A stretch of DNA of 64,000 nt from Eledone cirrhosa. Taxonomy: Eukaryota. The notes below the pieces were generated by a model that saw only the letters and a program-made list of their open reading frames with translations, had not been told where the DNA came from and ran no database searches. The DNA lies in NCBI GenBank assembly GCA_964016885.1, contig OZ024740.1, positions 93,806,001-93,870,000 on the forward strand, read 5' to 3'. Numbering within the stretch: the first letter of the stretch is position 1; the number at the start of each line of letters is the position of its first letter. The translations under genes were made by a program, and so were the position numbers. Shown here piece by piece: positions 34,873 through 43,055 of the stretch.

Positions 34873-35908
34873 GAACCAATTGGTTTACCGAACATTTATT
34901 ATAATGTTCGGTTTGTTTGTAAACAAACAGCCCGAATTAAGCCGTACAGTGTTCAGCAACCATCGTTGCCCTTTTGTTCAACACTGACAAAGGAACGATG
35001 AACTAGTTTCAATATTCTTAGCTATTGTCAGCAACGTATACCTACCTGTAAGATGATTGAACGTTTGAAAGTATATACTTTCCCTATGCGTATTAACCAC
35101 TGAGCAGCCTAATTTGCATATGGATTGAGTTAGTCGGCCTGGCGTACCGAAAACGATAAATGGAAAAGAATGAAACGAAATTTTATTTCTCACTCTTAGT
35201 ACGGCTGATACTTAAATATAAGCATGGATATGTACATACATATATGTATACATACGCGCAGTAGTATGTATACACATACATACATGCACACACACACATG
35301 TATGTATATTTATATATATATATATATATATATATATATATATATATATATATATATATATATATATATATATATATATATATATATATATATATATATA
35401 TATATATAAATATATATATATGTAGGTATGGGTTTACTGAAGAGTGAGAAATAATTTCGTTTCATTCTTTTCTATTTACCGTTTTCGGTAAGCTCGCCGC
35501 CAACACATTCGATATGCAAATCAGGCTGATCACCCGTTAATATGCATAAGGAAAGTATATACTTCCAAACGTTCAATCATCTGACAGCAAGGTATACGAT
35601 GCTGACGATAGCTAATACGTTAGAAAATAGTTCATCCTTCCTTTGTCAGTTTTGAACAAAAGGGCAACGATGGTTGCTGAACACTGTACGGCTTAATTCA
35701 GGCTTTTTGTTTACAAACAAACCGAACATTATAATAAATATTCGGTAAAACCATACGTACATATATACATATATATATGTGTGCATGTATGTATATATAT
35801 GCATACTACTGTACGTCTGTATACATATATGTATGTACGTATACATAATTTATTTAAGTATTAGCCGCACTGAGAGTGAGAAATGAAATTTCGTTTCATT
35901 CTTTTCCA
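34873..35908. repeat. Retrozyme-like array 3, divergent inverted pair (junction ~35440)
   Basis: HHRs at 34996-35036 (-) and 35597-35637 (+). Both ends lie in (TA)n. Confidence 0.88.
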
Positions 35909-36599
35909 TATATATATATAATTGGTGTGGGATGCTTAAAGCGTTCGTATGCGGTATGCCGTTTGAAGACTCGATGGTCCTACAGTGCAGAGTATAATAT
36001 CACATAAGAAACGGAGAATCAGTGATGAGACGAAATAAATGTATTATACATATTTCTATAGTTTCTCTGGCGTCCAGTCAGTTCGAGGCACGATCGATGG
36101 TCGCCAGAGAAAGGACTGTAGTACGCCTGACACATTTTAGTTCGGCGCACCACTGATTCTCCGTTTCTTATGTGATACATGTATATATATATATATATAT
36201 ATATAAATATATATATATATATATATATATATGTGTGTATATATATATATATATATATATATATATATATATATATATATATATATATATATATATATAT
36301 ATATGTGTATATATATATATTCATATATATATATATAAATATATATATATATATATATATATATATATATATATATATATATATATATATATATATATAT
36401 ATATATATGTATATATATATATATATATATATATATATATATATATATATATATATATATATATATATATATATATATATATATATATATATACACATAT
36501 ATATATATATAAAAGAGAAAACACAGGTAAGCATTAAGAGAAGGATTTAATCCAGGTATTTACGACCGTTTCATTGTATCTAAATTTATACAATTTGAC

Positions 36600-38186
36600 A
36601 TTAACGATCATTACTCATCTATATCCCCCAAAATCTTGGATAAAGCATTAGCATTCGCCAAACCCAATTCTGACATAACAGACGACGAGATAAAAATCAT
36701 ATTAGCTGCTAGGAAAACAATAATTAAATTTGAAAACGCCTATTGGGAACGTAAGGATAGATTAAATAACTTTGACATCACGATGGGGGCTAACGACTCG
36801 GCTCAAGTCACACACTTAGTAGGTATTTACATAGCCCACAGTTTTCAAAGCGAGTTTAGTGACCTTCACGGTGGAATCTACAGAGACGACGCCCTTCTCC
36901 TAGTTAAGAACCTAAATAACCAGAGCATAGAAAGACTCCGTAAGAATATATGAAAGACTCTCGGAAAACTAGACCTTAGCATAACGTACGAGTATAGCAC
37001 TAAAACAGTTAACTTTCTAGGTGTGTCGCTTAACCTAAATACGGGACTTATAAGACCTTTTCACAAGATTAATGAAAACTTAGCATACATCAACTGTAAC
37101 TCAAACCACCCACTATCAATAATTAAATCCATTCCACGAAACATATCCCTTAGGACCTCCCGCCTCTCATCTAACCGGCAAATCTTCGAAGAACATGCAG
37201 AATACTACAATACCGCATTAGACAAGGTAGGCCACTTATTTAGAGTAGAATATATAGATGAAAGCCTCTGTGAAGCACACACGAACACGCATAACACAAA
37301 CTCCAGAAACACACGCATACACACATTTACGCATAGAACTGCAAAGTATACGGCAAATAGAAGTACAACATCGAAATCAAACAAGTCACTCAGTAGAAAA
37401 TATATTTGGTATAACCCCATATTTAACACCTCTATTAGTACTAACCTAACCTCTACTTTCTTTAGAATAATAAATAGGCACCTTCCAGATTCACATAAAT
37501 ACAGCAAAATCCTTAACACTAAATCTATTAGACTATCCTACTCCACGGCACCAAATATAGAAGCACACATTAAGATGCTTAACGCTAAAAAGATACATAA
37601 CAACACCAAAACACAAATTTACAATAACAATACAATTACCACCGAACACAACAGAATATCTAATACACAACCACCCGCTAATAGGCAAACAAAACGTAAC
37701 ACACTTGTTCAGGCATCGCAGCCCACAAATAATGCCAAAGTTGCCCATAACAAGAAATGCAACTGCCACCTACCTGAAACCTGTCCATTACAAAATGAAT
37801 GTATGCAGTCTAACCTGATTTACCATTGCACAGTGGAATCAGACAACCAGAAATGGTATAACATCGGAGCGACTGGGAATACCTTTAAAGCTCGTTGGTA
37901 TACACACCGTTACGCAATGAAACATTCCCAGCACCGTTATGTAACTACACATGCAAACAAGACCTGGCAACTGAGGGAAAGTAACCATCAATACACCCTG
38001 AAGTGGAAAAAATTATCAAACGCGCCCCCATATCGGAGTGGTATCAAAAGCTGTCGATTATGCGACCTTGAGCTGTTCCACATCTTAAGTTCGGAGAATA
38101 GGTTACTCAACAATAAAATTGAGAGATCAATTTATTGTAACCATAGACTCAAAGAGAAATTTTCGCACTACAAATCGAACACTTAA
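36600..38186 (+). pseudogene. Naiad-like RT plus GIY-YIG ORF with one in-frame TGA at 36951-36953
   Basis: Motifs: FDITMGANDSAQV..LVG, GIYRDDAL, VNFLGVSLNL, SNHP, IWYNP, CNCHLPETCPL, LIYHC..NIGATGNTFKARW..H, CRLCDLE, CNH. Confidence 0.92.
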
Positions 38187-40569: not shown

Positions 40570-41500
40570 ACATGATAAAATCATTAAATAGAGAATATAG
40601 TATGTGGCTAAATCGTGTTTGGGGAGGGACCAGGATTTCTGGCAAGGCAATCTATGGCTATCAGGAGTGAAATTCTCAGTATTCAAAATTGTAGATCTCT
40701 TTGCTTGCGGCTAAAGGCTTAGCTAAGTTCGAAGCAAAGAGTTGCAGGGATAATCTCGAACCCAAGAGAAAGCTTAGCACACCAAATATTCGCATTTAGG
40801 CAGATCTGGAGAAATTGTGGGAGTATTGCCTAGATTTATATACCTTGAAAAGGCATATGACTGTGGACCTCGTGACCTCTTGTGGAAGATTGTGGAGGAG
40901 TATCGGATGGTCATGTACTTATTTCCATGATGTCTCTATAAGGACGCCCGAGTATATTTATTGGGATAAATGTTGCTAAATTGAAGCCGTTCAATGTAGG
41001 AATCAGACTCCTCCTACTGTGGGTACGGTCAGCTATTCTATAAATTATTTACATGAACAGGTTCAACTAAAGAGCCTGGTTGGGATCAACAAGTTGACTG
41101 GTGGTTGTAAAATTAGTTGTGCGTAAGTTGCAAACGGCATCATGTGAATTAACTAGACAAATAAGCCTACGAAGATAAAACAAAATGGAGGTAGCCGTAA
41201 AAGTCAAACTCGCTAATTTCATGTCGATATTCGTTCGGATACTTACCAATAGTAACGTATCTTGGGTAATGACCGAAAGAATACGATCGCGAAAATAAGC
41301 GGGCGAAATGTGGTTTTCCAAAAGGTATTTGCAGTAATTTTAAATCTTAGAGTGCGTAGTTTGGAGATCAGAGATTCACTACAGAGCAGCTACATATCCG
41401 AATTGAGATACCACAGCTCCGACAATATGGGCATGGGGTTAGAACTTTTCAGGAATAAGTCACTGTTCAGATAATATTATGCAACTGGCTTATCGAGAGA
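40570..41500 (+). mobile_element. Decayed RTE-clade LINE RT fragment
   Basis: FIYLEKAYDCGPRDLLWKIVEEYR matches the FxDLEKAYDxVPR..LW..EYG motif. Confidence 0.65.
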
Positions 41501-41770
41501 TATATAAATTATTCCGTTCATGATACATTCATGATCTTTAACTGAAGTGTAATTAATGAATATTTTACATACATGTACATTTGAGAAAATCTATTACATT
41601 ATGAGTGAAGATGTATATCCAAAAGTGGTAAATGGGTAGAAACTCGGGATACACACGCACACAAACATACATATATATATATAAATATGGATATATATAT
41701 ATATATATATATATATATATATATATATATATATATATATATATATATATATATATATATATATATATAT

Positions 41771-43055
41771 AATAGAATGAAACCAAATTTTATTTCTCAC
41801 TCTTACCAGGGCACTTACTTAATTGAAGTATGTATGTATACAGACGTACAGTAGTATGTATATATATATATACATACATGCACACATATATATATGCACG
41901 TATCGGTTTACCGAACATTTATTATAATGCTTGGTTTGTTTGTTTGTAAACAAACAAACACCCCGAATTAAGCCGTACAGTGTTTAGGCAACCACGTCAC
42001 CTTTTTGTTCAACATTGACACAGGAACGATGTACTAGTTTCAAGCTTATTAGCTATCGTCAGCATCGTATACATTCATGCCAGATGGTTGAACGTGTGAA
42101 AGAATATACTTTCCCTATGCATATTAACGGCTGATCAGCCTAATTTGCATATCGAACGAGTTCAGTCGGCCAGACACATCGAAAACGATAAATGGAATAG
42201 AATGAAACGAAATTTCATTTCTCACTCTTATCTCGGCACTTACTTAAATGTAAGTATGTATGTATGTATGTATGTATACGTACATAATATATGTATACAG
42301 ACGTACATTAGTATATATATATATACATACATGCACACATATATTTATGCACTAGTACAACTAGTACATCGTTCCTGTGTCAGTGTTGAACAAAAAGGTG
42401 ACGTCGTTGTCTAAACACTGTACGGCGTAATTCGGGCTCTTTGTTTCTTTACAAACAAACAAACCGACCATTATAATAAATGTTCGGTAAACCGATACGT
42501 GCATATATATATGTGTGCATGTATGTAAATATATACATGCTACTGTACGTCTGTATACATATATGTATGTACGTATACATACATACTTACATTTAAGTAA
42601 GTGCTCTACTAAGAGTGAGAAATGAAATTTCGTTTCATTTTATTCCATTTATCGTTTTCGGTGTGCCCGGCCGACTGAACTCACTCGATATGCAAATTAG
42701 GCTGCTCAGCCGTTAATTTGCATAAGGAAAGTATATACTTTCAGACGTTCAACCATCTGGCAGGAAGGTATACGATGCTGACGATAGCTAATATGCTTGA
42801 AACTAGTACATCGTTCCTGTGTCAGTGTTGAACAAAAAGGTGACGTGGATGCCTAAACACTGTACGGCGTAATTCGGGTTCTTTGTTTGTTTATAAACAA
42901 ACAAACCGAGCATTATAATAAATGTTCGGTAAACCGATACGTGTATATATATATATATATAGTTGTGTGCATGCATGTATATATATATATATATATATAC
43001 AACTGTACGTCTGTATACATATATGTATGTACGTATACACACATACATACTTACA
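41771..43055. repeat. Retrozyme-like array 4: ~1.3 units (-) joined at 42350 to ~1.6 units (+), period 442 nt
   Basis: Intact HHR at 42027-42067 (-), half HHR at 42360-42371 (+), HHR at 42773-42813 (+). Confidence 0.92.

Follow-up and report, generated by a model that had tools for sequence, protein, structure and literature searches.

Inverted arrays of a hammerhead-bearing repeat in Eledone cirrhosa modestly support retrozyme mobilization by Penelope-like elements

In the octopus Eledone cirrhosa, a noncoding tandem repeat with hammerhead ribozyme motifs is probably a nonautonomous retrozyme of the type without long terminal repeats (LTRs), copied in trans by the reverse transcriptase (RT)/GIY-YIG protein of a Penelope-like element (PLE). 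We analyzed a 64,000-nucleotide stretch (contig OZ024740.1 of assembly GCA_964016885.1, positions 93,806,001 to 93,870,000; hereafter, the window), which is AT-rich animal DNA dense in microsatellites. Self-comparison revealed one family of this repeat, in four arrays (A1 to A4, with L and R denoting left and right arms); unless stated otherwise, all counts and comparisons were made within the window. Locally, the case for PLE mobilization is carried by one firm insertion, A4, and it modestly supports an idea that is already in print. Cervera and de la Pena (2020, PMC7229834) regarded PLEs as a strong candidate mobilizer of animal non-LTR retrozymes, a curation guide repeated the idea (PMC8969392), and Li, Clavereau, and Pollet (2026, preprint 10.64898/2026.07.22.740005) described animal retrozymes as nonautonomous PLE derivatives.

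Anatomy of the inverted arrays

A sequence-only reading of the window had described A3 and A4 as divergent inverted pairs, and we confirmed this arrangement. In both A3 (34873-35909) and A4 (41772-43056), the left arm is on the minus strand and the right arm on the plus strand, with their 5' ends inward, and each arm carries one full hammerhead motif. As a ruler, we used the natural 442-nt monomer at 42367-42808, counting positions from the predicted ribozyme cut. The two A4 arms are 94% identical to each other versus 83 to 90% to other arrays, group as sisters with 100/99 support, share 20 private characters, and overlap by at least 93 nt (monomer positions 133 versus 226 and 435 versus 278). 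A4 is a firm single insertion from one template, arranged head-to-head; A1 and A2 were likewise each derived from one template. The outer ends of A4 are 52 nt apart, at 226 and 278 nt beyond the ribozyme cut, a configuration that we liken to the "flush end plus tail" of PLE insertions, with the 3' end of A4R (monomer 226) as the candidate flush end and that of A4L (monomer 277-278) as the candidate tail end. A4R also starts 7 nt ahead of a cut site, which we estimate to have a chance of about 1 in 4 over six ends and did not use.

The history of A3 is less clear. Its arms share 89% identity, no more than either shares with the other arrays, and a single private character; they form one clade in 27% of bootstrap trees, and such a clade is not rejected (p-AU of 0.137). 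Since the arms are separated by about 110 nt of (TA)n and are no closer than the family background, they may represent two independent insertions. The inner end of A3L is blurred within TA. A3R starts at monomer ~226-240 and ends at 282, so that it comprises one unit plus an approximately 55-nt repeat of its own start, a layout like that of a PLE tail.

Across the family, the six 3' ends (monomer 127, 206, 208, 226, 278, and 282) span 155 of the 442 nt (P = 0.03) and all lie at least 127 nt from the ribozyme cut; the six 5' ends are scattered (P = 0.92).

The outer ends of A3 and A4 had also been read as lying in (TA)n without an obvious target site duplication (TSD). All four are indeed within 1 nt of a (TA)n run of at least five repeats, against a background of 1.8% of non-TA positions lying within 6 nt of (TA)n (3.2% in the 26- to 44-kb interval). 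This part of the claim needs qualification, however: at the left end of A3L, 9 nt of nonunit sequence precede the (TA)n, and two of the four outer ends, those of A3L and A4R, are at the edges of the unit's own TA tract. Because A3L, A2, and A4R end at or in this internal tract, the only ends that meet (TA)n from nonrepetitive sequence are those of A3R and A4L. Direct repeats at the ends of A3 and A4 consist of (TA)k only, and since these ends are inside (TA)n, the absence of a TSD is not scorable there; PLEs are able to make TSDs of 8 to 10 bp (PMC3846280).

The repeat unit and its hammerhead motif

Repeat units are 428 to 453 nt long, with a GC content of 0.34 to 0.37; they are noncoding, all arrays are purely tandem and free of LTRs, and the unit-to-unit junction is identical across the four arrays. 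Judged by size, GC content, and layout, the unit fits a non-LTR retrozyme, animal members of which have units of 150 to 450 bp, less than 50% GC, and one type I hammerhead per unit (PMC7229834). The predicted hammerhead in each unit is of type I, with a long interrupted helix I, a helix II of 3 to 4 bp, and a helix III of 2 bp inside a 6-nt palindrome. A model built from eight copies recovered nine, of which six have an intact core. In the proposed fold, 89.8% of cells are paired versus 32 to 42% in slid controls; individually, the folds of eight hammerheads beat shuffles in only two. Rfam returned no hammerhead family at its gathering score or among the 150 of 317 weaker matches listed. Two consecutive units of A1 have intact hammerhead cores, the feature by which the preprint calls a retrozyme "active." Each unit further contains a self-complementary TA/TG-rich tract (monomer ~128-226) that folds as a long hairpin (z = -4.0; none of 200 shuffles was as good). 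Pfam assigned no family to 22 and 146 reading frames.

A1 and A2 are uninverted. The 3' end of A1, at monomer 208, abuts a LINE-like fragment (LINE, long interspersed nuclear element), and that of A2, at monomer 206, runs into (TA)n; their 5' ends lie 739 and 106 nt from (TA)n, respectively, and neither array has a TSD longer than 5 nt. At the 5' junction of A2, a 12-nt flank sequence (31613-31625) is tandemly duplicated.

Restriction site-associated DNA (RAD) reads from the same species show that the repeat is very common and that its copies continue in tandem beyond the window. Summed contig depth over the repeat was about 10^5 times that of the unique flank, a ratio that implies no copy number, and a 1,159-nt read contig spans the unique flank by A1 (reads matched to 17600-19837). 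Tandem continuation is seen in loose ends at 19412/19414 and in joints from 19832/19834 to 19412. Large peaks of loose ends at 19791/19792, like the molecule ends at 19427 and 19606, fall on AATT; we therefore read these as RAD restriction/religation artifacts rather than element ends. At least seven read joints connect opposite strands, with side lengths suggesting a head-to-head order, and four of them occur at single-locus depth in both runs. We did not count them as support: five of their end positions come immediately after a 4-mer that differs from AATT by one change (background, 7%), and the joints probably trace to the RAD protocol as well. Pattern scans for extra copies found three metagenome loci with no similarity to the window, three bacterial loci that we took as chance, and no viral locus.

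Neighboring PLEs and other copies as comparators

As PLE comparators, we used nine insertions from families with PLE coding evidence; three uninverted PLE-like solo fragments that have none (26236-26408, 26470-26704, and 30526-30740) were left out. All nine comparators are inverted pairs, and 13 of their 18 ends are at most 6 nt from (TA)n. Most have one flush end and one tailed end, with tails of 56, 56, 56, 69, and 134 nt, and arm identities across all clades (85 to 100%) overlap the ages of the arrays. The non-PLE controls were six copies, which we take to be two RTE-like 3' parts, two short interspersed nuclear elements (SINEs), and two further LINE-like pieces; for one of them, there is a lead to DUF6451 in 27% of a cluster. 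None of the six is inverted, versus nine of nine PLE-family insertions (P = 0.0002), which makes inversion a discriminating mark in this window. The (TA)n flank is a weak one, because a TA-rich tract is part of the unit itself and because non-PLE elements also touch (TA)n. Among four non-PLE copies with clear ends, two of eight ends lie no more than 6 nt from (TA)n, exceeding the background (P = 0.008), and (TA)n separates PLE from non-PLE ends only weakly (P = 0.03). For the repeat, the figure is five of eight ends versus two of eight (Fisher's P = 0.16), a comparison confounded by the internal tract. Two of the non-PLE sequences deserve description. The RTE-like LINE 3' part at 51036-51953, one of the controls, has a (GAT)n tail and a 5' end 2 nt from (TA)n; a SINE-like copy at 60858-61037, inside a PLE, has a candidate 6-nt TSD by eye, and a second copy lies at 55505-55692.

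The neighbors had been labeled, without coordinates, Naiad-, Nematis-, and Neptune-like insertions of the same architecture as the arrays. These clade labels do not all hold. No Naiad was found: six-frame translation of the window contains no DKA or Naiad RT3 motif and no N-terminal endonuclease, and every endonuclease domain found follows the RT part. Diagnostics of the Hydra clade (a C-terminal endonuclease, a CxCX5C linker, and CxxC plus CxH around conserved E and N residues) were found instead at 36.5, 46.5 to 51, 52 to 55, and 27 kb, most clearly at 36.5 and 54 kb and elsewhere via tblastn to these two. This assignment was made by motif, from these features and from likeness in the RT3-RT4 region to PMC8557442 (section 11 and Fig. 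S1), which already lists an octopus Hydra PLE preferring (TA)n. The PLE at 36.5 kb has an RT plus C-terminal GIY-YIG frame with one internal stop and a 134-nt tail ending in (TA)n. At 46484-50974 lies an unusually long PLE inversion: two Hydra-type arms, each more than 2 kb long and 90% identical to one another, stand head-to-head, and just one of the ends is near (TA)n. The Neptune-like PLE has an inverted arm, a 69-nt tail, and (TA)n on one side only; a 75-bp tandem repeat at 16081-16550 codes for a low-complexity stretch in its N-terminal part.

Another group is a young PLE family with a C-terminal endonuclease and a hammerhead-like motif (20923-22372, 11993-13136, 28165-28805, and 60816-61905), hereafter the 21-kb family. 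The constant 56-nt tail of its 21-kb member also occurs in the copies at 11993-13136 and 28165-28805. The family has a Nematis-like short linker, yet its relatives, in which the RT is followed by the endonuclease, carry a DKS motif and an RT3-RT4 insert of about 65 residues that is absent among the Nematis rows compared; as these features match none of the published clade rows compared, the family is possibly an unnamed subclade. One element in the window has its best protein match in Octopus vulgaris, at 59% identity.

Next to A3 lies a small inverted pair (35920-36177) that is of PLE type by architecture, has no coding evidence, and has a short TA run in common with A3R. Further small pairs are found at 34085-34498, 45131-45420, 26704-26865, 30075-30436, and 43475-43754. 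Such pairs, some of which extend on one side and end there in (TA)n, are likely stumps of further PLE families for which coding evidence is lacking. Two other palindromes were noted: one at 3754-4291, 97% identical and lacking both a tail and a (TA)n flank, could be a fold-back or MITE-like element (MITE, miniature inverted-repeat transposable element), and one at 63740-64000 is cut by the window end, with a plus-strand hammerhead-like motif just to its left, and could have tail-to-tail polarity. Coordinates are collected in Table 1.

Table 1. Arrays, their parts, and PLE insertions in the window
Feature	Position	Strand	Remarks
Neptune-like PLE	13153..18267	-	DKG; CX4CxxC; C-terminal endonuclease
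A1, 1.8 units	19409..20168	+	Not inverted; no (TA)n flank
C-terminal-endonuclease PLE (21-kb family)	20923..22372	-	CX4CxxC linker; hammerhead-like motif; 56-nt tail
A2, 3.4 units	31625..33097	+	Not inverted
(TA)n, left flank of A3	34716..34872
Nonunit filler, 9 nt	34873..34881		12-bp palindrome together with A3L arm end
A3L arm, about one permuted monomer	34882..35312	-	3' end at monomer 127
A3L type I hammerhead (predicted)	34972..35064	-	Core broken at G8; predicted cut 35001/35000
Central (TA)n, between A3 arms	35313..35421
A3R arm	35422..35909	+	Begins near monomer 226-240, ends at 282
A3R type I hammerhead (predicted)	35569..35661	+	Core intact; helix III pair broken
Small unrelated inverted pair	35920..36177		~78-nt extension on one side
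Hydra-clade PLE	36508..39272	+	69-nt inverted 5' arm flush in (TA)n
(TA)n, left flank of A4	41667..41771
A4L arm, 1.3 units	41772..42352	-	5' start at monomer 133
A4L type I hammerhead (predicted)	42003..42095	-	Core intact; predicted cut 42032/42031
A4 inversion junction	42353..42359		9-nt tandem duplication of helix III/cut-site sequence
A4R arm, 1.5 units	42360..43056	+	Includes full monomer 42367-42808
Internal TA/TG hairpin tract in A4R	42495..42592	+
A4R type I hammerhead (predicted)	42745..42837	+	Core intact; predicted cut 42808/42809
(TA)n, right flank of A4	43057..43131

Origin of the inverted arrays

How might a PLE produce such arrays? When purified, a PLE protein cleaved AT-rich DNA on both strands and began copying at two sites within the RNA, which set the tail; hammerhead cleavage was not required (PMC11167929). 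Head-to-head is the usual PLE polarity, and mobilization in trans by a PLE has precedent (PMC3846280). For the octopus repeat, the PLE protein would bind multimeric or circular repeat RNA, nick AT-rich DNA on both strands, and initiate reverse transcription at an internal RNA position, about 226 or about 280 nt downstream of the ribozyme cut. Synthesis would proceed beyond one unit, as the 1.0 to 3.4 units seen suggest. Two cDNAs joined at their truncated ends would give a head-to-head pair, flush at one end and tailed at the other; a single cDNA would give an uninverted array. We infer that the mechanism described for the purified protein would yield A4 directly.

The earlier claim that the arrays are local evidence of PLE mobilization is thus partly sustained, by the pattern of A4; the (TA)n and TSD signs turned out to be weak. 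Several observations weigh against PLE mobilization. Only one of the four arrays is a firm single inverted insertion. Inversion of two of four arrays versus none of six non-PLE copies is not significant (P = 0.13), and counting A4 alone (one of four versus none of six) gives a P value of 0.40. The 3' ends scatter (206-226 and 278-282) and are less sharp than PLE ends, which in the best PLE family are fixed to about 1 nt, and the A3L end at 127 falls outside both 3'-end classes. Neither compensatory base changes nor covariation was found among the hammerhead copies, which leaves motif and pairing as the basis of the fold. Finally, the repeat shows no similarity above shuffled controls to 20 PLE or PLE-like terminal regions in the window, a protein-level search of the window found no similarity between the unit and PLE proteins, and the hammerhead model matches no PLE ribozyme there. 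With no sequence link to them, the neighboring PLEs serve as a comparison and not as identified partners.

Other origins have to be set against this one. Whatever route the repeat itself took to spread, the inverted pairs could have been made at the DNA level, A4 through fold-back repair, either at (TA)n or at the self-complementary tract of the unit, and A3 by two independent insertions into one microsatellite. This fits the long hairpin formed by the tract, the placement of three arm boundaries at its left edge (127, 133, and ~135-150) and of others at its right edge, the 9-nt duplication at the A4 junction, and the failure of the A3 arms to resolve as sisters. We nevertheless consider it unlikely, since the ends of A4L (278) and A3R (282), independent of each other, lie beyond the tract and abut (TA)n, the two pairs are alike in being head-to-head, and none of the six non-PLE copies is inverted. 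An improbable alternative dispenses with a separate parasite, the arrays being truncated pseudo-LTR (pLTR) pieces of an autonomous PLE outside the window that were inserted in cis. Hammerheads and tails are pLTR features, Xenopus retrozymes are homologous to pLTRs according to the preprint, and, with six of many loose-end rows per run compared, a minority of copies may continue into a coding part. However, the unit junction is constant in all four arrays rather than a variable truncation point, contigs and reads run from the 5' edge of an array into a preceding unit, and the unit shows no coding similarity.

Mobilization of the RNA by a LINE, such as the RTE-type copies in the window, with the inversions as twin-priming products, appears quite improbable to us, although LINEs remained an option as mobilizers in Cervera and de la Pena (PMC7229834). 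Twin priming too gives 5' inversion (PMC3024322), and the 5' end of one RTE-like copy in the window is 2 nt from (TA)n. A3 alone fits either twin priming or a PLE: A3L ends at 127, and A3R could start from 128 onward inside the central TA. Twin priming loses the intervening sequence, however (PMC3024322), whereas the A4 arms overlap by at least 93 nt. Moreover, none of the arrays carries its own simple-repeat 3' tail, A1 and A2, where a TSD could be scored, have none longer than 5 nt, and no 3' end falls at a processed RNA end. Thus, in the window, neither LINE-type tails nor scorable LINE-type TSDs accompany the repeat. Copying in trans by a PLE protein therefore remains our preferred reading.

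Which PLE would be the partner? The 21-kb family is closest in tail length and in spacing from ribozyme to end, its flush end lying 171 to 198 nt from the cut (by eye) versus 55 nt for Hydra (by eye), and it is a lead only. A further proposal, which we hold to be doubtful, is that a PLE protein primes the retrozyme at two fixed internal sites (about +226 and +280 from the ribozyme cut) with no PLE sequence in common, the retrozyme mimicking a partner through the structure and spacing of its RNA.

Relation to known systems and significance

Like endonuclease PLEs, whose insertions have an inverted 5' arm and an optional tail and among which Hydra-1_Obim and octopus Naiads target (TA)n (PMC8557442, PMC3846280, and PMC11167929), the repeat has head-to-head arms, one longer end, (TA)n sites, and 3' ends downstream of the hammerhead. 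Unlike them, it has no open reading frame and its ends are less sharp. Its candidate tail, at 52 to 56 nt, compares with 30 to 40 nt in the literature and 56 to 134 nt for PLEs in the window. Nonautonomous Chlamys elements, such as MRC1, are also noncoding and form multicopy head-to-tail insertions, which have been attributed to PLE machinery (PMC8557442). These elements are algal and have 3' sequence in common with an autonomous partner, whereas the octopus repeat has a hammerhead and no such match in the window.

Among the retrozymes of PMC7229834, which include mussel repeats of 350 to 390 bp and axolotl repeats with a weak helix III, the amphibian motifs that act as dimers resemble the octopus repeat in its short, weak, palindromic helix III. 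In contrast to those retrozymes, the octopus repeat is at the upper size limit, has an internal TA/TG hairpin, and is known here from DNA alone; inverted pairs and tails are not mentioned in the main text of that paper. The preprint reaches the conclusion that we consider probable, that PLE machinery mobilizes non-LTR retrozymes. In its accessible portion, it relies on co-occurrence and pLTR homology, mostly in vertebrates, with no analysis of insertion junctions; unlike its retrozymes, the octopus repeat has no pLTR homology within the window. Our literature search, whose coverage excluded most subscription papers, found no junction-based test of retrozymes and no cephalopod retrozyme.

A single firm insertion amounts to a lead, short of proof, and what it would confirm is a hypothesis that already exists, not a system of a new kind. 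Published support for the proposed mobilizer of animal retrozymes consists of co-occurrence and pLTR homology. Evidence from junction anatomy is independent of these, and now that an in vitro system for a PLE has been published, a mapped pair of start sites would be open to direct testing. If the mimicry proposal were true, the 52- to 56-nt tail and a spacing like that of the 21-kb family would name the partner, and junction anatomy would become a general way to pair retrozymes with their mobilizers.

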